Shown here: positions 5 through 57,138 of the stretch, in pieces
Position numbering within the stretch: position 1 is the stretch's first letter
How the letters are laid out: each line of letters begins with the position of its first letter
NCBI GenBank assembly: GCA_964645645.1
Contig: CAZYBC010000005.1
Coordinates: forward strand, 702 to 64,701
From: an uncultured Pseudomonadales bacterium
GTDB lineage: Bacteria; Patescibacteriota; Microgenomatia; UBA1400; PJMF01
DNA length: 64,000 nt
Reading direction: 5' to 3'
The notes under the pieces: generated by a model
What the model was told of the DNA's origin: nothing
The model's database searches: none
What the model saw: the letters and a program-made list of their open reading frames with translations, nothing else
Made by a program: the position numbers and the translations under genes

Positions 5-343
5 GTGTTAGGGGCCATTGAAACGGCTATTAATAAAGCTGAGCTAAATCTTAATCCAGTAGTTGATGGCGATAAAATTAGAATTGTAGTACCAGCCTTA
101 ACTCAAGAACGACGTCAAGAAATGGTTAAACTTTTACATCAAAAAATTGAATCTGGTAAAGTGATGATTCGTAATGAAAGAACTGACACAAAAAAGATGA
201 TCGAAGCCCAAAAAGGTGAAGCAGCTGTAAGTGAAGATGATATTAAATTAGAATTAACAGAAATGCAAAAAATTGTTGATCAATATATTGAAAAACTAGA
301 AGAAATTGCGGAAGTTAAAGAAAAAGAGTTAATGACTATTTAA
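5..343 (+). CDS. frr: Ribosome recycling factor, C-terminal part (5' end lies before the window start)
   Basis: The translation carries conserved RRF motifs (NLNPxxDGxxIRIxxPxLTxERRxEMVK, KVMIRNERTD, EKELM). The ORF starts at the window edge with no upstream start codon. Confidence 0.85.
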   Translation: MLGAIETAINKAELNLNPVVDGDKIRIVVPALTQERRQEMVKLLHQKIESGKVMIRNERTDTKKMIEAQKGEAAVSEDDIKLELTEMQKIVDQYIEKLEEIAEVKEKELMTI

Positions 344-346
344 ACT

Positions 347-1489
347 ATGTCGATTATTTTAGTGGTTTTGATTATTTCTTTTTTAGTGATTATTCATGAG
401 TTAGGTCATTTTTTTCTGGCTAAAAAACACAAAATTAAGGTAGAAGAATTTGGACTTGGTTATCCACCCAAATTATTTAAATTATTTCGTTGGCTAGATA
501 CAGATTTTACTGTTAATGCCATTCCTTTTGGCGGTTTTGTTAGATTAGAAGGTGAAAATGGGCCAGAAGAAAAAACGGCTGATCAAGCAGAAAAAAAATC
601 TCAACCCAAAGAACAAGCTTTTTACCAAAAATCAGCTTCAGCTAAAATTCAAGTTTTATTAGCTGGAGTTGTCATTAATTTTATTTTTGGTTGCTTAGCT
701 TTTTGTCTGATTTTTTCCTTTATGGGTATTCCTACTTCTTTGAACAACCAGCCCATTATTGGTCAGTTGTCAACAAATTCTCCGGCGGCTGTTGCTCAGT
801 TGCCACTTAATTCATCAATTGAAGCTTTGCAATTAGAAGGTGAAGCTTTAGTAAAAGTTAATCATATTAATCAAGTTCAAGATTTTGTAAAAATTCATCA
901 AGGTCAAACCATTAAGATTTATCTTAGCCAAGAATGTCAAATGGATCTTTGTCAAAGTGCGATGACCGAATATCAAATTTATTTAAGAAAAGATGATGAA
1001 ATTCCTGCTAATGAAGGTTCAATGGGGATCATGTTTGCTGATTATTATCTTAAATTTTATCCTTGGTATGAAATGCCTTTTAGAGCGATGTTCTACGGAG
1101 TTAAACAAGCAGTGTCTTTGGGATTATTAATTTTAGTGACCTTATTAAGTGTTTTTAAAGATTTATTAACTCATGGTTCTTTACCTCAAGATGTGGCTGG
1201 GCCAGTAGGGATTGCTCATCAAGCCAATGAATTTAATTTGGCAGGGCAAGATTGGGCCACTTTATTAAATTTTGCTGGAATGTTATCTATCAATTTAGCA
1301 ATTATGAATTTATTACCATTGCCGGCTTTAGATGGTGGAAGAGCTTTATTTGTTTTATTAGGAAAATTTATCGGTAAGAACAAATTAGAAAAATTGGAAT
1401 CATATCTTAATTATGCTGGTTTTTCTTTATTAATCTTATTAATGATTTTAGTCACTATCCGTGATGTTAGTCGCTGGATTGGAATTTAA
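347..1489 (+). CDS. rseP: Site-2 protease, M50 family zinc metalloprotease (RseP-like)
   Basis: An HELGHF (HExxH) motif sits in the first TM segment. An NLLPLPALDGGR (LDG) motif is near the C-terminus. The protein is polytopic and follows frr as in many bacteria. Confidence 0.85.
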   Translation: MSIILVVLIISFLVIIHELGHFFLAKKHKIKVEEFGLGYPPKLFKLFRWLDTDFTVNAIPFGGFVRLEGENGPEEKTADQAEKKSQPKEQAFYQKSASAKIQVLLAGVVINFIFGCLAFCLIFSFMGIPTSLNNQPIIGQLSTNSPAAVAQLPLNSSIEALQLEGEALVKVNHINQVQDFVKIHQGQTIKIYLSQECQMDLCQSAMTEYQIYLRKDDEIPANEGSMGIMFADYYLKFYPWYEMPFRAMFYGVKQAVSLGLLILVTLLSVFKDLLTHGSLPQDVAGPVGIAHQANEFNLAGQDWATLLNFAGMLSINLAIMNLLPLPALDGGRALFVLLGKFIGKNKLEKLESYLNYAGFSLLILLMILVTIRDVSRWIGI

Positions 1490-1494
1490 TTTTT

Positions 1495-1773
1495 ATGGCA
1501 AAAAAACGTACTAAAAAACAAAAATTAGCTGCTAAAGAAAAACGACAGCAAAATTCAACTTCTGTTGCTGTTGTAAAAAATTATTTAGAAGTACAGCCTT
1601 TAACAACAAAAACAGAAGCAGAAGCAACAACTGATAATGCTGATGAAGTAGCTCTAAGAACGACTCAATTATTAAGTACACCTGTCAAATTCATCCATCA
1701 AGATTTATTTAAAACAGCTTTAGTGACAGCAATTATTTTAGTGATCCTGATTGTGCTTGCAATTTATTATTAA
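1495..1773 (+). CDS. Hypothetical small protein with a Lys-rich N-terminus and a C-terminal TM anchor
   Basis: A 92-aa ORF with MAKKRTKKQK at the N-terminus and a hydrophobic C-terminal segment (LVTAIILVILIVLAIYY). No recognisable family. Confidence 0.35.
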   Translation: MAKKRTKKQKLAAKEKRQQNSTSVAVVKNYLEVQPLTTKTEAEATTDNADEVALRTTQLLSTPVKFIHQDLFKTALVTAIILVILIVLAIYY

Positions 1774-1843
1774 ATAGTTAACAATTAAGTAATAAGCTCT
1801 TGGAGTTTATTTTTTTTGAATATCACGAAAGGAACAAGTTTTA

Positions 1844-3049
1844 ATGTCAAAAAAAATTCTTATTAGTGCTTTAGTTTTATATCTATTATCTGGCGGTTTG
1901 TCTTATACTGCTTTTTCATATTTCATGCCAGGTTCTTCTAGCATTTCTGTTACAGATCAGACTGATAATAATGGCTCAAATGATCAAGAAAATACAGCTT
2001 TAGCTGCTTTATTGGAAATTGATCCAAATGAAGCTAAAGATCAAGTTTGTCCTTTAAATGGTGCTTATTTTACTAATACAGAAAAGACAGCCTGGGAAAA
2101 ACGTCGTCCTTTATTTGTAATGATTGAAAATTCAGTTGATGCGAGACCTCATTCTGGTATTAATAATGCTGATGTTGTTTTTGAAGCTGTTGCTGAAGGT
2201 GGTGTTACTCGTTTTGGTGCTTTATTTTATTGTAATGCTCAAGCTTACAATGTTACTTTAGCTCCAGTACGTAGCGCTAGAACTTATTTTGTAGATTGGG
2301 CTAGCGGCTTTAATTATCCAATGTATGTTCATGTCGGTGGTGCTAATATTCCTGGCCCAGCCAATGCTTTAGGTCAGATTGCTGATTATGGTTGGAATTT
2401 ACAAAATGACATTAATCAATTTTCAGTAGGTTATCCTACTTTTGTTCGTAATGCTAATCGTTTAGCTGGTAAAGAAGTAGCTACTGAACATACCATGGAG
2501 ACTACCACTGAGGCTTTATGGAAAGTAGCAGAAGAAAGAGAATGGACTAATCTTAGCCCAGTAAGAAAAGTAGGACGTACTTCTGTGGGCGGTGACGATT
2601 GGAAAACTGGTTATAAAGGTTGGACTTTCTTAGATGAAGAGCCAGCTGATGGAACAGTTGCTAATATTGCTTATGATTTTTGGAGCGGTTACGGTCAATT
2701 TAGCGTTGCTTGGAAATATGATCCAGCTACCAAAATGTATTTAAGATCTAATGGTGGAGAAATTCATACTGACTTAAATACTGGCAAACAAGTCACTGCT
2801 AAAAATGTAATTGTTGCTTGGATGGTAGAAAAAGGCCCGATTGATGAGGCTAAACATTTACTTTATACCACGCTTGGTACTGGTGAAGCTTTAGTCTTCC
2901 ATAACGGTACAGTTACTGAAGTATTATGGCAGAAAAAGACTCGTGAAGGAGAATTAACCTTTGTAGATAAAAAAGGTAAACCAGTTGAGTTAGCCAGAGG
3001 TATGACTTGGATTAGTGTTTTACCTAAGGGTAATAAAGTTACCTATTAA
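1844..3049 (+). CDS. DUF3048 family protein (YerB-like secreted/lipoprotein-like)
   Basis: An N-terminal signal/TM is followed by the core motif RRPLFVMIENSVDARPHSGINNADVVFEAVAEGGVTRFGALF...APVRSARTYFVDWA. This matches the conserved DUF3048/YerB block (RP..VMIEN...RPQSG...ADIVYE.LAEGGITRF...IGP.RSAR.YF). Confidence 0.7.
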   Translation: MSKKILISALVLYLLSGGLSYTAFSYFMPGSSSISVTDQTDNNGSNDQENTALAALLEIDPNEAKDQVCPLNGAYFTNTEKTAWEKRRPLFVMIENSVDARPHSGINNADVVFEAVAEGGVTRFGALFYCNAQAYNVTLAPVRSARTYFVDWASGFNYPMYVHVGGANIPGPANALGQIADYGWNLQNDINQFSVGYPTFVRNANRLAGKEVATEHTMETTTEALWKVAEEREWTNLSPVRKVGRTSVGGDDWKTGYKGWTFLDEEPADGTVANIAYDFWSGYGQFSVAWKYDPATKMYLRSNGGEIHTDLNTGKQVTAKNVIVAWMVEKGPIDEAKHLLYTTLGTGEALVFHNGTVTEVLWQKKTREGELTFVDKKGKPVELARGMTWISVLPKGNKVTY

Positions 3050-3077
3050 AAAGCAATTATTAATAGTGTCAAATTTT

Positions 3078-3103
3078 GCCGGGCTTTTAGCCCGGCATTT
3101 TAG
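3078..3103 (+). terminator. Rho-independent terminator-like hairpin downstream of the DUF3048 gene
   Basis: A 7-bp GC stem GCCGGGC (3078-3084) / GCCCGGC (3090-3096) with a TTTTA loop, followed by ATTTTAG. Confidence 0.55.
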
Positions 3104-3172
3104 TTAAACAAGCTTTTTATAAACCATAGCGGTAGTTTTTAAGTTGTGTTTTTAAATCATTCCAATAATTGA

Positions 3173-3242
3173 AAAAAATATATATGACTTTATAAACCAT
3201 TTGAGCGAAGCGATTGCGTTTATAAAGTCATATATATTTTTT
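3173..3242. repeat. Perfect 25-bp inverted repeat with a 20-nt spacer; candidate operator or bidirectional hairpin
   Basis: The left arm 3173-3197 is AAAAAATATATATGACTTTATAAAC. The right arm 3218-3242 is GTTTATAAAGTCATATATATTTTTT, the exact reverse complement. The spacer is CATTTGAGCGAAGCGATTGC. A third TTTATAAACCAT copy lies at 3116-3127. The repeat sits about 75 bp upstream of an HTH-domain gene. Confidence 0.6.
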
Positions 3243-3318
3243 ACTGCTTTACTAATAATTGAGTACATATTATATTCTATTTAATTATCTATAATTATTT
3301 TTATAAAAAAGGTATTTT

Positions 3319-3921
3319 ATGAGCAGCATGCAAGACTTTATGATCTCCAGGGTAAGAGTGAAAATGTTGGAATTATTTTTTTGTGAAGAAGATGAAATGT
3401 TTTATGTTAGAGAAATTACTCGTCGGATTAAAGAAGAAATTAATGCTGTAAGACGTGAATTAGATAGAATGTTAGAATCAAGTATTCTTAAAAGTGAACA
3501 ACGTGGTAATCGTCTTTATTATTACCTAAATAAAAAATACCTTTATTATCAAGAATTACAACGGATGGTCGCTAAAAGTATTGGTTTAGGTAAAAAAATT
3601 CGCAAATTACGTCATAAATTAGGCCAATTAGATTACGTTATGTTTTCTGGTAAATTTATTACTGGCCGTAGACCCAATCGAGATGAAGTAGATGTTTTAG
3701 TAATTGGTGACGTGGTTTTAACAGAATTAGAAGAATTAATGAAAAAAGAGCAAGAAAGATTAGGTAGAGAAGTTAATTATGCTGTTTTCTCTTTAGATGA
3801 ATTTGATTTTAGAAAAGTGAGAAGAGATCCTTTTATTATGGATATTCTTTATTCTAATCGAATTATGATTATTGGCGACGAAATTTCTTTTGCAGAACGA
3901 AAAACCACCAATGTAGTTTAG
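3319..3921 (+). CDS. Winged-helix (HTH) domain fused to a minimal nucleotidyltransferase-like domain; putative regulator
   Basis: The N-terminal ~90 aa is helix-rich and basic (ITRRIKEEINAVRRELDRMLES..., wHTH-like). The C-terminal block MFSGKFITGRRPNRDEVDVLVIGD fits the hG[GS]x(9-13)D[VI]D[LV] minimal NTase signature. Confidence 0.45.
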   Translation: MSSMQDFMISRVRVKMLELFFCEEDEMFYVREITRRIKEEINAVRRELDRMLESSILKSEQRGNRLYYYLNKKYLYYQELQRMVAKSIGLGKKIRKLRHKLGQLDYVMFSGKFITGRRPNRDEVDVLVIGDVVLTELEELMKKEQERLGREVNYAVFSLDEFDFRKVRRDPFIMDILYSNRIMIIGDEISFAERKTTNVV

Positions 3922-3930
3922 AAATTTTTT

Positions 3931-5313
3931 ATGAAAAACCAAAATTTAAAACGTTTATTACTTATTATTTTGCTTTTTTTAATTAGCTTATATATTAGTT
4001 TACCAAGTAAATTTAAACTTGATTTTAAAATTTTTGGCAAACAAATTTCTCAAGAAATTCAAATTCCACAATTAGATTTTTGGTTTTTTGGCAAAAAAGT
4101 TAATCCAAAATTTGAATTAAAAAGAGGTCTAGATATTCAAGGTGGAATGCAGGTAGTTTTGCAAGCCAAGATGGATAATATCGCTTTAGAAGATAGAGAA
4201 ACAGCTTTAGAAGCTGCTAAAAATATTATTTTACGTCGGGTAGATTTATTTGGCGTGGCAGAGCCACGGGTACAGACTGCTCAAGCTGGAGAAAATGATT
4301 ATCGTATTATTGTTGAATTACCAGGTGTTGATGATCCTGCCGCCGCTCTGCAATTAGTTGGTCAAACTGCTCAATTAGATTTTAGATTACAAAAAGAACA
4401 ACTCTCACCAGAAGCTACTCAATCAGCAGCCGCTTTTTTAAGTGATTTTGAAAAAACTGGTCTTTCTGGTAAACAACTTAAAAAAGCTCAAGTTCAATTT
4501 AACCCCAATAGTAGCGAACCAGTCATTAGCTTGGAATTTGATGAAGAAGGGACGCAATTATTTGCGGATATTACTAAAAATCACCAGGGGGGTGTTTTAG
4601 CTATTTTTATTGATGAGTTTCCTGTAGCTATGCCAAGAATTAATGAACCGATTTTAACGGGTCAAGCACAGATGTCAGGTGGTTTTGATTTAGAATCAGC
4701 TAAACAACTAGCTATTCAACTTAATGCTGGGGCTTTGCCGGTTTCAATTAATGTTATTAGTCAACAAAACATCGGGGCCAGTTTGGGTGATCAATCTATT
4801 AAAGAAAGTATTAAAGCAGGTGTCATTGGTCTAATTTTGGTAATGCTATTTATGATTTTATATTATGGTAGACAAGGTTTAATTGCCAGTGTAGCGTTAT
4901 TAATTTATGCTGCCATTACGATTGCTTTATATAAACTTTTAGGAGTAGTAGTTACTTTACCAGGTATTGCTGGCTTATTGATCTCAATTGGTATGGCTGT
5001 TGATTCTAATATTTTAGTTTTTGAAAGAATTAAAGAAGAATTAAGAAACGGACAAATGGAAGACCGAGCCATTGAATTAGGTTTCGGAAAAGCCTGGGAA
5101 AGTATTAAAGATGCTAATTTAGCTACTATTATTACAGCCTTAATTTTAATTAACCCGCTTAATGCGAGATTTCTTAATAGTAGTGGTTTAGTCAGAGGGT
5201 TTGGAATTACGCTTTTATTAGGTGTTTTAGTGGGTTTATTTACTGGTGTGGTAGTTAGTCGGACTTTAATGAGAGTCTTTTTACCTATTTTAGTCAGGAA
5301 AAAAGTTAAATGA
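3931..5313 (+). CDS. secD: Protein translocase subunit SecD
   Basis: An N-terminal TM and a large periplasmic domain are followed by a C-terminal 6-TM bundle carrying SIGMAVDSNILVFERIKEE (the SecD/F signature). Confidence 0.9.
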   Translation: MKNQNLKRLLLIILLFLISLYISLPSKFKLDFKIFGKQISQEIQIPQLDFWFFGKKVNPKFELKRGLDIQGGMQVVLQAKMDNIALEDRETALEAAKNIILRRVDLFGVAEPRVQTAQAGENDYRIIVELPGVDDPAAALQLVGQTAQLDFRLQKEQLSPEATQSAAAFLSDFEKTGLSGKQLKKAQVQFNPNSSEPVISLEFDEEGTQLFADITKNHQGGVLAIFIDEFPVAMPRINEPILTGQAQMSGGFDLESAKQLAIQLNAGALPVSINVISQQNIGASLGDQSIKESIKAGVIGLILVMLFMILYYGRQGLIASVALLIYAAITIALYKLLGVVVTLPGIAGLLISIGMAVDSNILVFERIKEELRNGQMEDRAIELGFGKAWESIKDANLATIITALILINPLNARFLNSSGLVRGFGITLLLGVLVGLFTGVVVSRTLMRVFLPILVRKKVK

Positions 5314-11970: not shown

Positions 11971-13278
11971 TTGCCATTAATGAAAAAAATTATATTATTT
12001 ATTTTTAGTTTCTTATTTTTGAGCATTAGTTTTTTATCTTTAATTTCTAAACCAATTTATGCTCAAGAAACTCCTAAAATTGTTCATCTATTTAGTTCAC
12101 GCACTTGCCCCCACTGTAAAGCAGAAAGATTATTTTTAGAACAATATCAAAAAGAAAATTCTGACATTAAAATTTATGTTTATTATATTGATAAGTTTAA
12201 TGAAGTAGTTAATACTAATTTAATTACCCAAGTAGCTAAAGAGTTAAACATTTCTTCAGCTGGAGTTCCAATTACCATCATTGGTGATCAAGTTTTGATC
12301 GGTTTTGGTGACGCAGCCACCACTGGTCAAGAAATCAAAAATTTAGTTGGCTCAGAATTTACAAAACCAACATATCAAGATGTTGTTACTAAGATTGCCA
12401 AAGAAAAAAATTTGATCCCTGTTTTTGAAGATTTAAGCTTAGCTAAAGTTACTACTCCTACGCCAGAACCAGTTGGTTTAATTCCTAATAATAATGGCGA
12501 TCAAGTTAAGCAAGATCAAGACACTGGAGTAAAAGAAATTAGCTTACCACTTATTGGCAAAGTTAGTTTAAAAGGTATGTCCTTACCATTATTAACTCTA
12601 GTTTTGGGTTTAGCAGATGGCTTTAACCCTTGTGCCATGTGGACGCTAATTTTTTTAATTAGTTTATTGTTAGGTTTAAAGGATAGAAAAAGAATGTGGA
12701 TATTAGGTGTTTCTTTTATCTTGGCGAGTGGCTTTGTTTACTTTTTATTTATGGCAGCGTGGTTAAATTTCTTTTTATTAGTAGGGATGATTAAATGGGT
12801 AAGAATTGTTATCGGTTTAGTAGCATTAGGTGCAGCCTGGAGTTATTTAAAAGATTATTGGGAAAATAAAGATGGGGCTTGTAAAACTGATTTTAGTGGT
12901 AAAAAACAACAAGTTTTTGCTAAGTTAAAAGCCATTACGAGCAAAGAAAGTTTAGTTTTAGCTTTAATAGGAATTGTTCTTTTAGCCTTTGCGGTTAATC
13001 TTGTGGAAATGGTTTGTTCAGCTGGTTTACCTGCTATTTTTACTAAAGCTCTTACTCTTAATAATTTACCCCAATGGCAATATTATGGCTATATCTTGTT
13101 TTATTTACTCTTTTTTATGGCTGATGATATTATTGTTTTTACAATTGCTATGAAAACCTTACAGGGTGTTGGTTTAGATACCAAGTATGCTCGTTATTCT
13201 CATTTAGTAGGAGGAATTTTAATGTTGTTAATTGGTTTAGCGATGATTTTTAAACCCAGTTTATTAACTTTTGGTTAA
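11971..13278 (+). CDS. Thioredoxin/glutaredoxin-like domain fused to a CcdA/DsbD-type transmembrane thiol-reductant transporter domain
   Basis: A signal/TM is followed by a CPHC motif (SSRTCPHCKAERLF) in a Trx-like N-terminal domain. The polytopic C-terminal half has conserved Cys in TM segments (GFNPCAMW, MVCSAGLP), as in CcdA/DsbD beta. Confidence 0.5.
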   Translation: MPLMKKIILFIFSFLFLSISFLSLISKPIYAQETPKIVHLFSSRTCPHCKAERLFLEQYQKENSDIKIYVYYIDKFNEVVNTNLITQVAKELNISSAGVPITIIGDQVLIGFGDAATTGQEIKNLVGSEFTKPTYQDVVTKIAKEKNLIPVFEDLSLAKVTTPTPEPVGLIPNNNGDQVKQDQDTGVKEISLPLIGKVSLKGMSLPLLTLVLGLADGFNPCAMWTLIFLISLLLGLKDRKRMWILGVSFILASGFVYFLFMAAWLNFFLLVGMIKWVRIVIGLVALGAAWSYLKDYWENKDGACKTDFSGKKQQVFAKLKAITSKESLVLALIGIVLLAFAVNLVEMVCSAGLPAIFTKALTLNNLPQWQYYGYILFYLLFFMADDIIVFTIAMKTLQGVGLDTKYARYSHLVGGILMLLIGLAMIFKPSLLTFG

Positions 13279-13283
13279 AAAAA

Positions 13284-13310
13284 AAGCCTTGTTATTAACA
13301 AGGCTTTTTA
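13284..13310. terminator. Bidirectional intrinsic terminator between convergent genes
   Basis: A9-AAGCCTTGTT-ATT-AACAAGGCTT-TTTTTA. A perfect 10-bp stem (13284-13293 / 13297-13306) flanked by an A-run and a T-run. Confidence 0.65.
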
Positions 13311-28173: not shown

Positions 28174-28403
28174 TTTTGATAAAGGGTTTTTTTATAAGTA
28201 GTAGATAATTGTGGATCAGCTTTAATTGCTGGATCAGAAATTTTGCTTAATTCTAACAAAATATTGCTATTTTCAGCTTGTTCTTGAAGAAAATCATTAA
28301 TTAAACTTCTAATTAAATTAGAAATATTAAGAGCCTTTTTTTCAGCGATTAATTGTAAAGTTTGCTTATCTTTATCTGGTAAACGAATAATAAGTTGAGC
28401 CAT
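28170..28403 (-). CDS. vapB: Ribbon-helix-helix (CopG/Arc-like) antitoxin, VapB-type
   Basis: MAQLIIRLPDKDKQTLQLIAEKKALNISNLIRSLI is an RHH beta-strand plus two helices. The ORF track extends it to 28439, but the ATG at 28403 is preferred. Confidence 0.6.
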   Translation of the reverse strand: MAQLIIRLPDKDKQTLQLIAEKKALNISNLIRSLINDFLQEQAENSNILLELSKISDPAIKADPQLSTTYKKTLYQK

Positions 28404-28523
28404 ATTAAAATGATTGAGATTTTGTATTACGTATTGCATTATATTAATTAAACCAAAGATAGTAAATATTTAGTTACTGCTATTTATAACAAACAAAAAT
28501 GAAAAAATTATGAAAAAAATAAA

Positions 28524-30417: not shown

Positions 30418-30441
30418 AAAATGATCCTATTTTTTTTAGAA

Positions 30442-30672
30442 TTAAAAATCATAATCTAAATCTTGTTCATGTGATAAATCAATTAAACGTTGAGTTTCTT
30501 CTCTGCCTAAAATATCTCTCACTCTAACATACATATCCTCTAGCTTATTATATTTTTTTTGTTCTAATTTATAAGCAGATTGATAAAATCCAGCCATTAG
30601 AGCTAAGACTAAAATTATTATTAATAATATATAAGTGAGAGTTCTATAACTAATTGGTTGCTTTAATTGCAT
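30442..30672 (-). CDS. Hypothetical small bitopic membrane protein (FtsB/DivIC-like topology?)
   Basis: A 76-aa protein with one TM (LTYILLIIILVLALMAGF) followed by a short charged helical segment. No family assigned. Confidence 0.3.
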   Translation of the reverse strand: MQLKQPISYRTLTYILLIIILVLALMAGFYQSAYKLEQKKYNKLEDMYVRVRDILGREETQRLIDLSHEQDLDYDF

Positions 30673-30690
30673 TGGACTTAGTATATCAGT

Positions 30691-30921
30691 TTAATAAATT
30701 TCTACCAACTTTTTTTTTGTTGTTAATCCTTGTTTAATAAAAATTTGTGAAGTTTTACAGTGAAAATGATCAGATAAAATTTTAATTAAAACTTGATTAG
30801 CTTTTCCTTTTACTGGTGTAGTAGTTAAATAAACCTGCCAAATTTCTTGCTTATCAACGAGAATTTTTTCCACTAAATTTTTTTTAGCTTGAGGATGCAC
30901 TAGCACTGTAATTATTTTCAT
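30691..30921 (-). CDS. DUF167 / UPF0235 (YggU-like) protein
   Basis: VLVHPQAKKNLVEKI...TTPVKGKANQVLIKILSDHFHCKTSQIFIKQGLTTKKKLVEI matches the YggU pattern (V.P.A..N.V...APP.DGKAN.AL...L....S.V.I..G..SR.K.V.I). Confidence 0.5.
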   Translation of the reverse strand: MKIITVLVHPQAKKNLVEKILVDKQEIWQVYLTTTPVKGKANQVLIKILSDHFHCKTSQIFIKQGLTTKKKLVEIY

Positions 30922-30923
30922 TA

Positions 30924-41167: not shown

Positions 41168-42862
41168 ATGAAAAAATCTTTAGCTTTAACAAAAAAAGAA
41201 TGTTTAATTTTTACTTTAATTCTTTTAATTGCCTTTCTAGTTCGGTTTATTAAAATTACCACCATCCCGATCGCTTTTAATCGTGATGAGCTGGCTTTGG
41301 CTTATAATGCTTTTAGTATTGCGCAAACAGCAAGAGATGAACGGGGTAATTTTTTACCCCTTAATTTTGAATCTTTTGGCGATTGGAAACTTCCTGGTTA
41401 TATTTATAGTCTTGTGCCTTTAATCAAGATTTTTGGGTTGAATGATTTGATAGTTAAATTACCTTCATTCTTAGCTGGCTTAGGAATTATTGTCATTAGT
41501 TTTTTTCTCATGCGTTTATGGCTGGATAAAAAAGACTCAAAATTAGCTTTTATGCTAATGTTTTTTTTAAGCATTTTGCCCTGGGCGGTTCATACTTCTA
41601 GAATTGCTTATGAGGCTAATTTAGCTTTATTTTTATTTAGTTTAGGAATATTAAGTTTTGAATTATTTAAAGAATCTTATTTGAAAGCTAAACAAATTAA
41701 ACTTTATTTAATCTGCTTAGCTGGTTTAAGCTTTTTTCTAACTTTACTGACTTATCATGGTTTTCAAATAGTTACTCCTTTATTTTTACTAGCTTTATTA
41801 ATAATTGAAAAAGAATTTTTATTAAAATTATTTAAACAAAATAAAAATGTTTTATTAATTCCAACAATTCTATTTTTATTATTAACAACACTATTTTTTC
41901 TAGCTGGCACTAAAAAAGCTAATACTGTTAAGGGCAGTGGCTTGTTAATTCTTAATCAAAGTTATCAAAACGAAATTTATGAAAAAAGAAATTTTCTTAA
42001 AAATAAACCGTTAATAGCAAAAATTTACGTTAATAGTTTATCTCTTAAATTAGCTAGTTTAAGAGATAATTTTTTTCAGACTTTTTCTTGGGATTTTTTA
42101 GTAACCAGTGGTGGTAAAAATGGCGCTCACAATATTAGTTTAATTGGTAATTTATACCCTTATGAAATAATTTTTATTTTTATAGCTTTATTTTATTTTT
42201 TTACTGAAAAAAAATTGTGGCAAAAAAAAGTTTTACTTTGGCTTATTACTGCCTCAGTTGCACCCATTTTAACCACTGCCCCAAATCACACAATCAGATT
42301 TATCGCGGGGATGATTCCTTTAGAAATTTTATCAGTCTATGGCTGTTATAAAGTTTATTTAAAATTTAAACATAAAAAATTTATAATTTTTATGTTACTT
42401 ATTACTTTAATTTACAACTGGTTTTATTATTTTGTCTCTTACTTTTTAGTTGCTCCATTAAAAGATGTTAATAGACATAACTGGGCTTTAAAAGAAATCA
42501 GTCAAGAAATTCAACAAAAAAAAGACCATTATGACTTAGTAATGATTGATGAATCTGGAACTTCTCTTTATATTTATTTGCTTTATTATTGGCAATATGA
42601 CCCTAAAAAACTTAGTAGCAATTTAGTTTATTATCCTCATGATGATGAAGGTTTCTCTCATGCTCAAGCTTTAGAAAATGTTGTTTTTGCCTTACCTAAT
42701 TTTATCGAAAATGAGAATAAAGATTATCAAAAAATTTTATATGTTTTAAAAAAATCACAAGTTCCAGAATTTATCTGGATCCAAGGTCATTATAAATATC
42801 TTAAGGAATTTAAAAATGACTATGCTAAAGAGACTTATGTCATGTTTGAATATGAAAAATAA
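41168..42862 (+). CDS. GT-C glycosyltransferase, PMT/ArnT-like ('DE' family core paralog)
   Basis: IAFNRDELALAYNAFSIAQTARDERGNFLPLNFESFGDWKLPGYIYSLVPL, and the C-terminal motif TAPNHTIRFI. Aligns with ORFs 49776 (C-terminal domain), 52174, 53871 and 55579. Confidence 0.6.
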   Translation: MKKSLALTKKECLIFTLILLIAFLVRFIKITTIPIAFNRDELALAYNAFSIAQTARDERGNFLPLNFESFGDWKLPGYIYSLVPLIKIFGLNDLIVKLPSFLAGLGIIVISFFLMRLWLDKKDSKLAFMLMFFLSILPWAVHTSRIAYEANLALFLFSLGILSFELFKESYLKAKQIKLYLICLAGLSFFLTLLTYHGFQIVTPLFLLALLIIEKEFLLKLFKQNKNVLLIPTILFLLLTTLFFLAGTKKANTVKGSGLLILNQSYQNEIYEKRNFLKNKPLIAKIYVNSLSLKLASLRDNFFQTFSWDFLVTSGGKNGAHNISLIGNLYPYEIIFIFIALFYFFTEKKLWQKKVLLWLITASVAPILTTAPNHTIRFIAGMIPLEILSVYGCYKVYLKFKHKKFIIFMLLITLIYNWFYYFVSYFLVAPLKDVNRHNWALKEISQEIQQKKDHYDLVMIDESGTSLYIYLLYYWQYDPKKLSSNLVYYPHDDEGFSHAQALENVVFALPNFIENENKDYQKILYVLKKSQVPEFIWIQGHYKYLKEFKNDYAKETYVMFEYEK

Positions 42863-49775: not shown

Positions 49776-52184
49776 ATGTCAATTTCTGTACTCATCCCAA
49801 CTTTTAACGGTCAAAAATTATTAGCAAAAAATTTACCGGCTGTCCTAAAAGCTTTAACTAACAACGATGAATTAATTATTCTTGATGATGCAAGCACTGA
49901 TAATACTGTTTCATGGCTTAGTAATTATTTTAATTTAAGCCCAAGCCCTATTCCACAAAATTTAGCCAATCATTCTGTGGCTCAATTTTTGATTGGAACC
50001 AAACAAAAAATAAAAATTAAATTATTAGTTAATCAGCAAAATTTACGTTTTGGGCAAACGGTTAATCGAGGATTCTTAATAGCTGAAAATCAATTAGTTT
50101 GGCTTTTAAATAATGACGTGGCACCTTATCCCAATGCCCAACAATTTTTAGTCAAACATTTTAAAGATCAAACAGTTTTTGCCGTGGGTTGTTTAGAAAT
50201 AGAAAAAAATTTAGGAGGCGTTAAGGGTGGCAAAAATAAGCTTTGGTTTGACAAAGGCATCTTTATGCATAGTCGAGCTGAAGATTTTAAAACTGGGACA
50301 ACAGCATGGGCGAGTGGTGGTAGTGCCATGTTTGATAAAGAAAAATGGTTAAAAATTGGTGGATTTGATAAACGTTTTTATCCAGCTTATTGGGAAGATA
50401 TTGATCTTTCTCAAACGGCTAAAGAACATCATTGGCAAATTTTATTTGAAGAAAAAGCAATAGTTAATCATAACCATGAATCCACTAACGCTGATGTTTT
50501 TGGTCAAGCTCAAATAGAAAAAATTAGCTGGAAAAATGCTCAGAAATTTGTTTTTAAACATGGCACTATCTGGCAAAAACTAGCTAATTTACTGTGGCGT
50601 CCTTATTGGCTTTATCAGAGACAGAAAAAAAACAAATGGCAAATTTTAGTTTTTTTAGGTATTTTTATACTAGCGTCTATTTTAAGATTTTATCAATTGG
50701 GGAAAGTTCCTCATGGGATGACCTGGGATGAAGCAGCTATTGGATATAATGGTTTTGCTATTCTTAATACTCGAAGAGATGAATGGTTGGTAAGATTGCC
50801 AATTTCCTTTAAATCTTTTGGTGATTTTAAAGCTCCGCTAGCTATTTATCTTAATGGTATTTTTACTCACTTTTTAGGCATGAACTTGACTGCTGTTAGA
50901 ATGCCTTTTGCTTTAGCAGGGGTTGCTTCAGTAGTAGGAATTTTTCTGTTGGCACAAACAATGGCTGAATTTTTTAAATTAAAAACTATTCAAGGTTTAA
51001 AATGGCCATTTTGGGCAATATTAGGCTTAAGTCTTTCACCTTGGCATTTACATTTTTCAAGAATTGGCTTTGAATCGGGTTTAGCTTTAATGTTTATTAT
51101 TTATGCTTGTTACTTTTTATTTAAACTTTTTCTTGAATCAGAAAATAATTTTTTTAAAATCAATTTTTGGGCTGGCCTAGCATTCACTAGCTTTGTGGCG
51201 AGTCTTTATACCTATCATAGCAGTAAGATTTTTTTACCTTTATTTGCTTTATTGTTTTTAATTTTATTTTTTAAACATATTAAAAAACTTTGGTTAAAAA
51301 TTTTACCAGCCAGTTTATTTAGCTTAACCTTACTTTATCCTTTAATTAAAGATTCTATTTGGGGAGAAGGAATGACTAGAGCTAATTCATTAATTTTTAG
51401 TGAAAAGCTAAATTTTTTTCAATTAGCAGGCAAAATCATTACTCAATTACTTGCTCATTTATCTCCAGCCTTTTTATTTTTAGGTCAAACTGATACGTTA
51501 AGACATGGCCCAGGTAAATTAGCGGTCTTATTACCTGGCTCAATTATTCTCATTATTTTGGCCTGCTATTTTTTGTTAACTAAAAAATTTTCTAGCACTA
51601 AGAAAAAAATGTTTCAATTTTTATTAGGCTGGCTAATGATCGGTTTAATTCCTGCGGCTTTAGCTACTCCAGTTCCACATAGTAATCGTGCTTTATTAGC
51701 TTTACCAGCAATTATTTTAGGTTTAAGTTTAACACTAAGTTATCTTCGTTCTAAATTGATAATTGGGCTTTTTGTTATCATACAAAGTCTAAGTTTCATA
51801 GCTTATCTTCAATATTATTATCAAGATTTTGCTAAATTATCTGCCAATGATTTTAAAGATGGTTATTTAGAAATAATGGCAATCACTCAAGAATATGAAA
51901 AAGGTCTTAATGGCAAACCCAAAGTAGATAAAATCATTTTTACTAATGATTATGGCCAAGCTTATATTTATGCTTTATTTGTTAGACAAACTAATCCAAT
52001 TTGGTATCAAGGTGGTTCATTAATCAAATATGAATTTAAAGATGATGTTAATGTTGGAGATTTAAGCCGTAACAATAGCTTGATTATTGGTAGTAATAGT
52101 GATGATTTACCCACTGAAAAAGCTGATCATCTAGTTTATGGTAGTGACAATCAGGTAAAATTTAAAGCATTCTATGTTAAATAA
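49776..52184 (+). CDS. Bifunctional fusion: N-terminal cytoplasmic GT2 domain + C-terminal GT-C (PMT/ArnT-like 'DE' family) membrane domain
   Basis: Residues 1-~270 hold GT2 motifs: ISVLIPTFNGQKLL...LIILDDASTDNT...LLNNDVAPYPN...YWEDIDLS. Residues ~280-802 have 10 or more TM segments with GMTWDEAAIGYNGFAILNTRRDEW...SFGDFKAPLAIY and the C-terminal TPVPHSNRALL motif. Confidence 0.6.
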   Translation: MSISVLIPTFNGQKLLAKNLPAVLKALTNNDELIILDDASTDNTVSWLSNYFNLSPSPIPQNLANHSVAQFLIGTKQKIKIKLLVNQQNLRFGQTVNRGFLIAENQLVWLLNNDVAPYPNAQQFLVKHFKDQTVFAVGCLEIEKNLGGVKGGKNKLWFDKGIFMHSRAEDFKTGTTAWASGGSAMFDKEKWLKIGGFDKRFYPAYWEDIDLSQTAKEHHWQILFEEKAIVNHNHESTNADVFGQAQIEKISWKNAQKFVFKHGTIWQKLANLLWRPYWLYQRQKKNKWQILVFLGIFILASILRFYQLGKVPHGMTWDEAAIGYNGFAILNTRRDEWLVRLPISFKSFGDFKAPLAIYLNGIFTHFLGMNLTAVRMPFALAGVASVVGIFLLAQTMAEFFKLKTIQGLKWPFWAILGLSLSPWHLHFSRIGFESGLALMFIIYACYFLFKLFLESENNFFKINFWAGLAFTSFVASLYTYHSSKIFLPLFALLFLILFFKHIKKLWLKILPASLFSLTLLYPLIKDSIWGEGMTRANSLIFSEKLNFFQLAGKIITQLLAHLSPAFLFLGQTDTLRHGPGKLAVLLPGSIILIILACYFLLTKKFSSTKKKMFQFLLGWLMIGLIPAALATPVPHSNRALLALPAIILGLSLTLSYLRSKLIIGLFVIIQSLSFIAYLQYYYQDFAKLSANDFKDGYLEIMAITQEYEKGLNGKPKVDKIIFTNDYGQAYIYALFVRQTNPIWYQGGSLIKYEFKDDVNVGDLSRNNSLIIGSNSDDLPTEKADHLVYGSDNQVKFKAFYVK

Positions 52185-53868
52185 AAAACAATTTATTTTG
52201 GCTTTTATTTTAATTATATTTTTTGCAGCTCTACTTCGCTTAGTGGGTTTAACAAAATTACCACCAGCTCCATATTGGGAAGAAGTCGCTTTAGGTTATG
52301 ATGCGTATAGTTTATTAAAAACTGGCAAAGATCATCACGGTCATTCTTGGCCAATTGTAGCTTTAGAATCTTTTGGTGATTATAAACCAAGTGGTTATTT
52401 TTATGCTTTAATGCCGGTCATAGCTGTTTTAGGTTTAAATGTTGAAGCAGTTCGTTTACCCAGTGCTTTAGCCGGAATTGCGATGGTGGCTGGCATGATT
52501 GTTATTAGTCAATTACTTTTTTTTCCAGATAAAAAAGATAAAAAATCTTTGTGGCCACTAATTGCTGGCTTAATTATGGCCATTTCTCCTTGGGCAATTA
52601 TATTTTCTCGCTCTGCTTGGGAGGTTAATTTAGCAACAGCCATGTTGCTTTGGGCTATTATTTTAGGCATCAAAACTTTGCGAAGTAAAAATCTAAATTA
52701 TTATTGGCCACACTTACTCTTGTTAATAACTACTTTATATACTTACCATAGTACAAGAATTACTGCTCCTTTAATTGGAATTTGGTTTTTAGTGAATTTA
52801 CTTAAACAAAAAATTATTAAGAATAAAACACAATGGATACAATTATTATTAGCCTTAAGTTTAACTTTTCTAGCTGCTTTACCAATGTTATTAGCTATGC
52901 GACAAGCAGAATTTAGAATTCGTTTTGCTCAAACCAGTGCTTTTAATAACTCATCACTGATTGAACAAAGTAATGCGGCTAAAGAGCGTTTAAATAATAG
53001 CCTTTATGCCAGACTTGTTTATCATCGTTATTGGTTTTTCCTTAGAGAAATGAGCACTAATTTTTTGAGTCATTTTAATTTGAATTTTTTATTTATCAGT
53101 GGTGATATAAATCATCGTCATTCCATTCAAATGATGGGTCAACTGTACCATATCGAAATAATTTTTTTATTTTTTGGCTTTGTCTATTTATTTGGTAGAG
53201 AGAAAAATAATTTTAATAAATTTTTCTTATTATTTTGGTTGACAGCCGCTATTTTGCCAGCCAGTTTAACTAATGCTACACCACATGCCTTGAGAATTTT
53301 ACCTAGTTTACCAGTCTTTATTTTATTAATTATTTTAGGAATTAAAGAATTTTTGAACTTAATTAAACCACTAAATTTAAATAAGTTAATCAGAATCTTC
53401 AGCATAGTTTTAATTGTTGGTCTTTATTTAGGAGAATTTACTTATTTTATTCATAGCTACTGCAAACTTTATCCTCAACAATATAGTCAGGAATGGCAAT
53501 TTGGTTATCAGGAAATGCTAAGCGCTTTAGACAACTTAAAAGAACAATATCCAGATTTACCAATTTATATGACTAGAGAACAAGGGAGACCGGCTATGTA
53601 TTATTGGTTTTATCAAAACACCGATCCACGTTTAGTTCAACAAGCCGAAGCCAGCGCATTAAAAGATCAAGGTGAATTCTTAGAATTTGCTAATATTAAA
53701 TTTATCAATGGTTTAAATTTAGCCGAAAATAAACCAGCAATTCTGGTTGGCTCACCAGCTCAAATTATTCAATATCAACAAAGCTATCCCAATCGCCAGT
53801 TAGAAATTAAGCAAACGATTAAAGACTTAAAAGAAGAAGTTATTTGGCAATTAGCCATTTCAAATTAA
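52174..53868 (+). CDS. GT-C glycosyltransferase, PMT/ArnT-like ('DE' family core paralog; EE variant)
   Basis: APYWEEVALGYDAYSLLKTGKDHHGHSWPIVALESFGDYKPSGYFYALMPV, and the C-terminal motif NATPHALRIL. Confidence 0.6.
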   Translation: MLNKKQFILAFILIIFFAALLRLVGLTKLPPAPYWEEVALGYDAYSLLKTGKDHHGHSWPIVALESFGDYKPSGYFYALMPVIAVLGLNVEAVRLPSALAGIAMVAGMIVISQLLFFPDKKDKKSLWPLIAGLIMAISPWAIIFSRSAWEVNLATAMLLWAIILGIKTLRSKNLNYYWPHLLLLITTLYTYHSTRITAPLIGIWFLVNLLKQKIIKNKTQWIQLLLALSLTFLAALPMLLAMRQAEFRIRFAQTSAFNNSSLIEQSNAAKERLNNSLYARLVYHRYWFFLREMSTNFLSHFNLNFLFISGDINHRHSIQMMGQLYHIEIIFLFFGFVYLFGREKNNFNKFFLLFWLTAAILPASLTNATPHALRILPSLPVFILLIILGIKEFLNLIKPLNLNKLIRIFSIVLIVGLYLGEFTYFIHSYCKLYPQQYSQEWQFGYQEMLSALDNLKEQYPDLPIYMTREQGRPAMYYWFYQNTDPRLVQQAEASALKDQGEFLEFANIKFINGLNLAENKPAILVGSPAQIIQYQQSYPNRQLEIKQTIKDLKEEVIWQLAISN

Positions 53869-55589: not shown

Positions 55590-57138
55590 GCATTTACTTA
55601 AAACTATCTTAATTGCTTTAATCGGCTTATTTGCTTTATTAAGATTAATTAACTTAGGCACTAATCCGATAATCCTTAATCGAGATGAAGCTGCCTTAGG
55701 TTATAATGCCTGGCTTTTATCTCAGACTGGTTGGGATGAATGGCATCAAAAATGGCCGTTAATGATTAAATCATTTGGTGATTATAAATTACCAGGCTAT
55801 GTTTATTTATTAGTCCCACTATTTAGAGTTTTTAGCACCAGTGATTTTTTATTAAGATTACCGGCTTGTCTTTCAGGGATAATTTTAATTTATTTGAGTA
55901 TCAATTTAGCCAAAAAATTAGGCTTAAAAAAAATTACAACATTAATTTTTGCTTTAAGTATCGCGATTACTCCGGTGTTTTTCTTTTATTCTCGCATGGC
56001 GTGGGAGGCTAATTTAGGCTTAACTTTGCTAATTGGTAGTTTGATTTGCTTATTAAATAAACAAAAATTATTTAATTACTTAGGAATAATTTTAATTTTA
56101 TTAGCTTGCTTTACTTATAATACTCCTTATCTATTATTACCTTTTATTTTAGTTGCTCTAATTTTTTGGCAAAAAATGATTGGCAAAAAAACTAATTGGC
56201 TAATTATTTTAGCCTTAGGCATAGTTTTTATTGGTACTAGTTTAATGATTTTGCCACTTACTAATCAAAAAAGCGGCATTACGATTTTTACTGATCCAAC
56301 GGTAAGAGCTAATTATATTAATTATCGAGCTGATTTTAGTGGCTTAAGTCAAAAAATTTTAGCTAATCAATATATCTATTGGGCATCACTAATGTTCAAA
56401 AATACTTTAGCCAGCTTTAGTTATCAATTTTTAGTAAAAAATGGTGGTGGTCATCCTTGGCATAGTCAGCCTGGTTTTGCTCATCTAAATAATAGTTTTT
56501 ATTTTGTCGGTTTAGCTAGTTTAGTTTTTAATTTAGGAAAAATAATCATTGATTTAATTAAACGTCGTAAAATTCAGTTGCCAATGGTTTTTTTAATTTG
56601 GCTTTTATTTTCAGCATTAATTCCCAGTGTAATTACTACAGACGCCCCACATGCCACTCGGAGTTTATTGTTTTTTTATCTATTTAATTTAATGGCCGTA
56701 ATCGGTTTAGAACAATTTTATTTAGCTGTTATTAAAAAAAAGCCAATGCTAGTGAAAACTTTATTGCTGATCTTAGCAAGTTTAATTAGTTTAGAAACTG
56801 GTCGCTATTTTTATCACTATTTTGTAAGTTATCCTCAGCAACAAACAGCTTTACAGCCTGGTTATCAAAAAGTTTTAGCAGAAGTGAAGTCAACTAATCA
56901 AGCCATTGCCGTGGTTGATCCAAGTGGGTATCAATATATTAGCACTGCTTGGTATCTAAAATTACCTACTAAAATCTTTCTTGATACAGTTATTCATCAA
57001 AATCCTAACCAAATTGGCTTGTCTTATGGAGAAAGAATTAACAATTATCACTTTATTGCCCAAAAAGAAGACCGTAATGAACAAGAAAAAATTTTAATTA
57101 TTTGGGAAAATGGGCAATGGGTTATACAATATTATTAG
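55579..57138 (+). CDS. GT-C glycosyltransferase, PMT/ArnT-like ('DE' family core paralog)
   Basis: ILNRDEAALGYNAWLLSQTGWDEWHQKWPLMIKSFGDYKLPGYVYLLVPL, and the C-terminal motif TDAPHATRSL. Confidence 0.6.
   Translation: MKDKHLLKTILIALIGLFALLRLINLGTNPIILNRDEAALGYNAWLLSQTGWDEWHQKWPLMIKSFGDYKLPGYVYLLVPLFRVFSTSDFLLRLPACLSGIILIYLSINLAKKLGLKKITTLIFALSIAITPVFFFYSRMAWEANLGLTLLIGSLICLLNKQKLFNYLGIILILLACFTYNTPYLLLPFILVALIFWQKMIGKKTNWLIILALGIVFIGTSLMILPLTNQKSGITIFTDPTVRANYINYRADFSGLSQKILANQYIYWASLMFKNTLASFSYQFLVKNGGGHPWHSQPGFAHLNNSFYFVGLASLVFNLGKIIIDLIKRRKIQLPMVFLIWLLFSALIPSVITTDAPHATRSLLFFYLFNLMAVIGLEQFYLAVIKKKPMLVKTLLLILASLISLETGRYFYHYFVSYPQQQTALQPGYQKVLAEVKSTNQAIAVVDPSGYQYISTAWYLKLPTKIFLDTVIHQNPNQIGLSYGERINNYHFIAQKEDRNEQEKILIIWENGQWVIQYY

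Follow-up and report, generated by a model that had tools for sequence, protein, structure and literature searches.

Operators of the ArsR/SmtB family are imperfect dyads, of the 12-2-12 type, that overlap the promoter. The Correia elements of Neisseria are miniature inverted-repeat transposable elements (MITEs) of 100–155 base pairs (bp): they have terminal inverted repeats of about 26 bp and a TA duplication, and they are present in hundreds of copies. In the cosN site of phage lambda, symmetric nicks leave a 5' overhang of 12 nucleotides (nt). Palindromes can also be products of mutation. A single template-switch event can give perfect base pairing over a whole hairpin (PMC10710096), and template switching is thought to correct imperfect bacterial inverted repeats, preferentially, to perfect ones (PMC5941160). 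Here we describe a perfect 25-bp inverted repeat in a 64-kb stretch of the chromosome of a member of the Patescibacteria, and hence of the candidate phyla radiation (contig CAZYBC010000005.1). We will refer to the whole stretch as the window, and positions are numbered from its first nucleotide. The repeat lies in a 269-bp spacer, between the terminator of a gene for a DUF3048 protein and the promoter of a gene for a winged helix-turn-helix (wHTH) protein. We consider it about as likely as not that this palindrome is young, specific to one lineage, and the result of growth in place at this position. Most likely, it is a fairly ordinary feature that is best explained by a known mutational mechanism and that is unconnected to the neighboring regulator.

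The inverted repeat and its origin

The two arms of the repeat (3173–3197, with sequence AAAAAATATATATGACTTTATAAAC, and 3218–3242) are exact reverse complements (25/25 positions) and are 20 nt apart, as stated in a preliminary description of this DNA. That description's claim that the palindrome is far beyond chance also holds up. When we shuffled the 269-nt spacer 1,000 times with its dinucleotides preserved, the longest perfect inverted repeat had a mean length of 8.4 bp and a maximum of 16 bp. Within the window, the runner-up among perfect inverted repeats (with loops of up to 60 nt) has just 14 bp, and only two sites in the 64 kb match the arm with three or fewer mismatches, versus 0 expected. 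Folded as RNA, the hairpin reaches -30.0 kcal/mol (z = -9.7); for DNA, the value is -20.7 kcal/mol (z = -9.2). As RNA, it is the most stable hairpin in any of the window's intergenic regions. The stem is AT-rich, with 3 G/C pairs out of 25.

The palindrome is not an artefact of assembly, because each arm is found together with the loop in independent assemblies, with the gene order conserved. The left arm and the loop are present in one contig from Logan (L006), and the loop and the right arm are present in two others (L001 and L002, from two samples). All of these are identical to the window across these parts.

Evidence for growth in place comes from the closest relative that we identified (locus L003, 90% protein identity). 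The loop (3198–3217, CATTTGAGCGAAGCGATTGC) is partly self-structured, and together with the inner 9 bp of each arm it forms a core (3189–3226) that is homologous to the L003 spacer. Specifically, positions 3189–3224 of the window align locally to TTTAGAGAGCATTTAGGTAATAGCGCTTGCGTTTGTA from L003 (p = 0.006 versus shuffles). This match is at the same relative position in L003, between the terminator and the conserved promoter block, and the promoter block next to it is identical in the window and in L003. The L003 homolog of the core is not palindromic, and the L003 spacer has no inverted repeat longer than the 9-bp stem of its terminator. What is new relative to L003 is the outer 16 bp of each arm as well as about 75 bp to the left. 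Because the center of the hairpin is homologous to the spacer of L003, the palindrome seems to have grown around spacer sequence that was already there. Also, a perfect repeat (25/25) around a short ancestral dyad, at which an outgroup has a non-palindromic homologous sequence, is what intrastrand template switching would be expected to produce.

The repeat appears to be young and stable. None of its 25 pairs is mismatched, and two strains share it unchanged although about 5.5 kb of their sequence contains 29 differences elsewhere.

We propose that the center of the hairpin (the loop and the inner 9 bp of each arm), which is non-palindromic in the closest relative, represents the ancestral spacer, and that fold-back or template-switch copying during replication or repair is the most likely cause of the palindrome. 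The nascent strand would have paired with itself at a short pre-existing dyad, TTTATAAAC...GTTTATAAA, and would then have copied its own flank. This self-copying could produce perfectly paired arms in one step. As for the effect of the palindrome, it is probably tolerated rather than selected. A transcript that reads through the upstream terminator would be expected to form the -30 kcal/mol hairpin, ending in U6, and we speculate that this could act as a weak back-up bidirectional terminator or as an RNase III-sensitive insulator ahead of the promoter.

Several observations weigh against growth in place. There is just one close outgroup, at 90% protein identity, and its spacer aligns poorly outside of the core, so a template-switch event cannot be reconstructed base by base. 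Both of the outer half-arms are new relative to L003, so at least two events would be needed. The alignment with p = 0.006 was found after inspection. Within the source genome, the single-copy status of the repeat covers the 64 kb of the window only. The AT-rich stem (3/25 G/C pairs) and the 20-nt loop are unlike the real terminators of the window. Finally, the Logan contigs end at the hairpin exactly where they would if there were a second copy, of 38–39 bp, of the inner hairpin, and such a copy would favor a dispersed element.

Two further observations concern the loop and the strains. The loop includes GCGAAGC (3205–3211), which is known as a DNA mini-hairpin of exceptional stability and which is missing at this position in the closest relative. 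When the strain from SRR29243425 (L001/L006) is compared to positions 226–5298 of the window, the differences are clustered at 1093–1195, 3999–4014, 4659–4731, and 4938–4951, and none of the 29 differences is in the 269-bp spacer. To judge by their positions, the clusters look like short recombination tracts.

We also considered and rejected several other explanations for the palindrome. The right arm does not appear to be a diverged duplicate of the promoter block, as the similarity is not significant (p = 0.69). A small RNA gene or an attenuator does not fit: there is no promoter-like site upstream of the hairpin, on either strand. An attenuator that relied on the 9-nt pairing of 3116–3124 with 3218–3226 would be unable to compete with the 25-bp stem. 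A permissive scan of 2900–3500 with Rfam 15 gave, at best, matches to generic microRNA-model hairpins (30.6 bits versus a threshold of 77), and at the gathering thresholds, Rfam identified one tRNA in the whole window and no other family. A small protein can be set aside as well: the open reading frames of 27–38 amino acids across the hairpin have no ribosome-binding sites, and they exist because of the palindrome alone. Lastly, the site is not a replication origin or terminus, as the GC skew is positive on both sides of it and the genes are co-oriented.

Regulator, promoter, and terminators

The lead reading in the preliminary description was that the repeat is an operator through which the adjacent wHTH protein regulates its own gene. 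We examined 13 orthologous loci that span both the DUF3048 gene and the wHTH gene (L003, L005, and L018–L028); another locus, L004, starts within the spacer. The two genes are adjacent in all 13 of the spanning loci. At 269 bp, the window has the longest spacer, followed by L020/L021 (194 bp), L003 (143 bp), L024–L028 (67–71 bp), and L005, L018/L019, and L022/L023 (59–60 bp). The 25-bp repeat is absent from all 13 of these spacers (59–194 bp), whose only inverted repeats are short, GC-rich terminator stems, and the left arm has no counterpart in any of them. The comparison to L003 is particularly informative. Its wHTH domain has just 3 differences from that of the window in the first 72 residues, so its DNA specificity should match. 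That the L003 promoter lacks the palindrome despite a nearly identical wHTH domain argues strongly against an operator.

The wHTH gene has a promoter-like site at 3248–3276 on the forward strand (TTTACT, a 17-nt spacer, and TATATT), and the -10 box, TATA(C/T)T, aligns across the orthologs. This is the only promoter-like site in the spacer. It begins 6 nt downstream of the right arm, so the palindrome stops short of the -35-like hexamer and does not overlap the core promoter. Relative to the predicted start site, the palindrome is at about -42 to -111.

What is conserved at the promoter is another dyad, TTGAGTACATATTATATTC (GAGTA-N7-TATTC, 3259–3277), which overlaps the -10 box and is separate from the 25-bp repeat. 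All 13 orthologous loci have TTGAGTAC or a close variant beside the -10 box, and the variants include TCGAGTAC in L020 and, in the truncated locus, L004, TTGAGTAA. Its inverted partner is TA(C/T)TC or AACTCAA. The dyad comes in two arrangements. In the first, which is the form in the window (3259–3277), GAGTAC-N7-TATA(C/T)TC overlaps the -10 box; the second is TG-n-TATACT-N4-TTGAGTAC-N7-AACTCAA. The copy in L003 is at about 1979–1995. In the 64-kb window, TTGAGTAC occurs just once. The dyad at 3259–3277 is a better candidate than the 25-bp repeat for an autoregulatory operator, or it may be a conserved hairpin in the 5' leader.

More broadly, the repeat could be a site, whether operator or activator site, that is bound by the wHTH protein or by some other regulator, with either the arms or the palindromic octamer TTTATAAA as the half-sites. 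The location of the palindrome upstream of the predicted start is consistent with this, and so is the abundance of the octamer, which occurs four times in the spacer (at 3116, 3189, 3219, and 3300) versus 0.12 times expected from composition. It occurs just seven times in the other 63.7 kb of the window. However, once the right arm is removed, as it is not independent, 8.8% of shuffles contain some 8-mer three or more times. After this correction for the duplication within the repeat and for the choice of word, the octamer cluster is not significant (p = 0.088). Given also that the repeat is missing upstream of all of the orthologs, including L003 with its nearly identical DNA-binding domain, and that the promoter carries a different conserved dyad, we think that a binding site is very unlikely.

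A third half-site had been proposed as well. The 12-mer TTTATAAACCAT does recur exactly, at 3116–3127 on the forward strand and at 3189–3200, as was claimed, but such a recurrence is near chance: 6.6% of the spacer shuffles have a direct repeat of at least 12 bp. Also, equally long matches to the repeat region are scattered across the window. We view the recurrence of TTTATAAACCAT as weak evidence, of marginal significance.

The preliminary description also suggested that the repeat is a bidirectional terminator or an RNA hairpin, which it may be. It has the layout of A-run, stem, and T-run: T6 (3237–3242) pairs with A6 inside the repeat, as in bidirectional terminators, and is followed by ACTGCTTT. 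Because of this A6/T6 frame and the very stable stem, the palindrome could still stop read-through, but it is not the usual type of terminator in this genome. The evident terminators in the window (3077–3097, about 10233, 13281–13309, and about 15095) have GC-rich stems of 9–14 bp, small loops, and A/T runs. The palindrome, with a 25-bp stem, 3 G/C pairs, and a 20-nt loop, was not called by the terminator scan. Furthermore, it starts 123 nt past the stop codon of the DUF3048 gene and is downstream of that gene's own canonical terminator. This terminator (3077–3097, forward strand), which was found by the terminator scan, has a 9-bp stem, in which 7 of the pairs are G-C, and a loop of 3 nt, followed by TTTT. 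In the relatives L003, L004, and L020, too, an equivalent GC-rich hairpin follows the DUF3048 gene.

Could the palindrome be selected as a back-up bidirectional intrinsic terminator or insulator, which stops both read-through from the DUF3048 gene and antisense transcription before the wHTH promoter? Its layout does resemble that of the bidirectional terminator at 13281–13309; no intergenic hairpin in the window is more stable; and it is located between a terminator with a short T tract (TTTT) and a promoter. On the other hand, its composition and loop do not match the window's GC-rich stems and short loops, a canonical terminator is already present upstream, and no gene converges from the right. 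The relatives also do without the palindrome, some of them with only 59–60 bp between the genes. Overall, we consider a selected terminator or insulator to be unlikely.

The wHTH gene (3319–3921, forward strand) encodes a protein of 200 amino acids in which an ArsR-like winged helix is fused to a minimal nucleotidyltransferase-like domain. The previous identification of the neighbor as a helix-turn-helix–nucleotidyltransferase gene is correct. Among 42 homologs that we scanned, all have weak matches to the winged-helix family DUF7342 (E up to 0.1) and 10 match NTP_transf_2. AlphaFold2 gives a confident model of the protein (mean pLDDT, a per-residue confidence score, of 89). With Foldseek, the N-terminal part is similar to the ArsR/SmtB-type repressors SrnR, PagR, BigR, HlyU, and SqrR, and the C-terminal part is similar to the minimal nucleotidyltransferase MntA. 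We found 1,535 homologs of the wHTH protein, from Patescibacteria (Pacebacteria and Microgenomates), and the gene is conserved throughout this group.

In nearly all of the loci that we examined, the wHTH gene has the DUF3048 gene before it and secD after it; in L022/L023, it is followed by cca instead. In the window, the local gene order is frr, rseP, a small gene, the DUF3048 gene, the wHTH gene, secD, a small gene, secF, cca, and recJ. The window as a whole has a G+C content of 29.7%, and housekeeping genes are packed closely along it. We noticed two intergenic regions that are unusually long for a compact genome, at 28174–28523 (350 bp) and 30418–30923 (506 bp); these have no matches to Rfam or to tRNAs and form weak hairpins only. 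We also noticed a motif, AATCTTTTGGTGATTATAAA..., that is shared at 41370–41418, 50812–50831, 52367–52415, and 55769–55817, within several large co-oriented genes that are located at 38–62 kb in the window. The recurrence of this motif points to a cluster of paralogous genes. Our search of the window revealed no CRISPR arrays and no dispersed repeats.

Search for copies elsewhere, and contig ends at the hairpin

If the repeat were a tiny MITE-like element, as was also suggested, then it might be present in many copies. We found no support for this: no second copy turned up in the 64-kb window, GTDB species genomes, JGI metagenomes, IMG/VR, phages, or plasmids. With blastn-short against the window and all of the loci that we fetched, the only hit was the repeat itself. 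We also searched GTDB (185,579 species genomes, among which the source genome is not included) for two such arms separated by a gap, and this yielded just five unrelated hairpins. A 20-mer from the arm had no match in IMG/VR and had six chance matches, all to a single arm, in the JGI metagenomes. The loop had no match in IMG/VR either, and blastn against phages and plasmids gave nothing meaningful (E of about 0.1–0.5 only). The repeat is not detectably mobile.

Nor is there a convincing target-site duplication. The bases on either side of the arms (…AATTG | ACTGC…) do not form a direct repeat. A 9-mer, AATAATTGA, does flank the arms (at 3164 and 3254), but it is placed asymmetrically to them and has a length that is expected by chance. 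An inserted MITE would also have a clean empty site in the relatives and a foreign interior. L003 does lack the arms, yet its spacer aligns with the loop and the inner arms. Because the core is homologous to the spacer of a relative, at the same locus, the insertion of a foreign element does not fit.

The evidence for a dispersed element comes mostly from where the Logan contigs end. L006 ends at 3218, so it includes the left arm, the loop, and one more base. L001 comes from the run that also gave L006, and it starts at 3198; L002 comes from another run and starts at 3197. In other words, the contig ends on the left (3218) and on the right (3198 or 3197) overlap by the loop and one base, in two samples. 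At their other ends, L001 and L002 do not abut repeats. Logan assembles with k = 31 after dropping singleton k-mers, and contigs of under 150 bp are not reported (PMC12424806). In the de Bruijn graph (k = 31) of the window alone, there is no branch at the hairpin. When we simulated a second copy of 3189–3227 (or 3189–3226) with other flanks, we obtained the exact contig ends, and the shared 39-bp unitig would be too short for Logan to report. Other simulated rearrangements did not reproduce the ends. An invertible loop (flip-flop) would give ends at 3197/3202 and 3213/3218, which are not those observed, and deletion variants between short direct repeats would give extra breaks, at 3127 or 3300–3329, that are not seen.

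The repeat might thus be one copy of a small dispersed palindromic element, similar to a MITE or to a repetitive extragenic palindromic (REP) sequence, with the other copies, possibly with shorter arms, outside the window. Besides the contig ends, this could account for why the spacer is longer than in all of the relatives. Against it, no further copy of the arm, of the gapped repeat, or of the loop turned up in the window or in the collections that we searched; there is no convincing target-site duplication; and the core has a homolog at the same locus of a relative. We consider a dispersed element to be quite unlikely.

There are more ordinary ways to explain the contig ends. At inverted repeats, Illumina reads can show direction-specific bursts of errors, which start sharply at a given position and lead to a loss of coverage in both directions (PMC3141275). 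Among the other Logan contigs of the clade, L004 has its first base at the foot of a GC-rich terminator stem (L004 1–34), and L029 ends at 13277, which is 4 nt before a perfect 14-bp repeat at 13281 (AAAAAGCCTTGTTA-T-TAACAAGGCTTTTT, 13281–13309). That these contigs also stop at ordinary terminator hairpins suggests that hairpins generally cause drop-outs in low-coverage assemblies. For the ends at the palindrome, there are three possible explanations: the inner hairpin has a second copy, Illumina sequencing produced an artefact, or the DNA really ends there.

Real DNA ends would have to be staggered: a cos-like or structure-specific nuclease would nick each strand at the 5' border of the loop, which would leave 5' overhangs of 21 nt. 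End repair would then fill in the overhangs, so contigs would stop at the borders of the loop. This matches the overlap of exactly the loop plus one base, in two samples, as well as the lack of inverted repeats at the other ends of these contigs. To our knowledge, an overhang of 21 nt is longer than in the known examples of cos. The window's assembly crosses the site, the gene order across the site is conserved in all of the relatives, there is no change in GC skew or in gene orientation at the site, and no phage or plasmid matches were found (in IMG/VR or by blastn against phages and plasmids). A repeated core or direction-specific Illumina errors at inverted repeats (PMC3141275) would be ordinary alternatives, and other contigs of the clade end at ordinary terminator hairpins. 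We consider staggered ends to be extremely improbable. The skew, the gene orientation, and the conserved gene order make it unlikely that there are real chromosome ends at this site.

The boldest interpretation is that the loop borders are fixed DNA ends, at a cos-like or nuclease-targeted site, or, in a milder form, that the inner 38-bp hairpin is the first small dispersed palindromic element from the Patescibacteria. We view this combined interpretation as highly improbable. A programmed cleavage site or a dispersed element would be argued from the pattern of contig ends and from nothing else, and either is improbable. The palindrome matters little in itself, but if real DNA ends or a dispersed element were true, then the site would be considerably more interesting.

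Significance and comparison with known systems

If the palindrome did grow in place, as we favor, then it offers a clear case, in a bacterium, of a spacer in which a perfect hairpin arose de novo. It is also from the Patescibacteria, in which non-coding DNA is scarce and little studied. More generally, a striking palindrome beside a regulator gene need not be the site for that regulator. A more useful by-product of our analysis is the conserved TTGAGTAC dyad, which is a testable candidate for the operator of a widespread wHTH-nucleotidyltransferase of the Patescibacteria.

How does the repeat compare with the systems that it resembles? Like phage cos sites, it is two-fold symmetric with a non-symmetric spacer in the middle, and one could interpret the contig ends as 5' overhangs that were filled in. 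Unlike cos sites, it is in a chromosomal spacer among housekeeping genes, with no terminase or prophage nearby.

Like the Correia-type MITEs, the repeat has terminal inverted repeats of about 25 bp, is intergenic, adjoins a promoter, and is absent from the orthologous site in relatives. Unlike them, it spans only 70 bp, no other copy of it was found, it has no clear target-site duplication, and its center is homologous to the spacer of a relative instead of being foreign.

Bidirectional Rho-independent terminators share its intergenic location, its order of A-run, inverted repeat, and T-run, and its potential to form a strong RNA hairpin from both strands. But the palindrome is AT-rich (3/25 G/C pairs) with a 20-nt loop, and it is 123 nt past a stop codon, behind a canonical terminator and with no converging gene.

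As with the ArsR/SmtB operators, the repeat has dyad symmetry and is upstream of an ArsR-like winged-helix gene. Its 25-20-25 architecture is unlike that of ArsR-type operators, and the half-sites are 45 bp apart, center to center. Also, it is upstream of the -35 hexamer instead of over the promoter, and it is not conserved along with the protein. The conserved dyad at 3259–3277 fits this class of operators better than the 25-bp repeat does.

The closest likeness is to quasipalindrome or template-switch products. An arm of 25 bp with a loop of 20 nt is near the upper limit of the lengths described in bacteria, and the repeat differs from these products in needing more than one step, as both of the outer half-arms are new. 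Otherwise, it resembles the products of the Ripley model and of the four-point model of Loytynoja and Goldman: the arms are perfectly paired and lineage-specific, a short pre-existing dyad lies inside, the center is homologous to a non-palindromic sequence in a relative, and the repeat is non-coding and, in the data that could be searched, single-copy.

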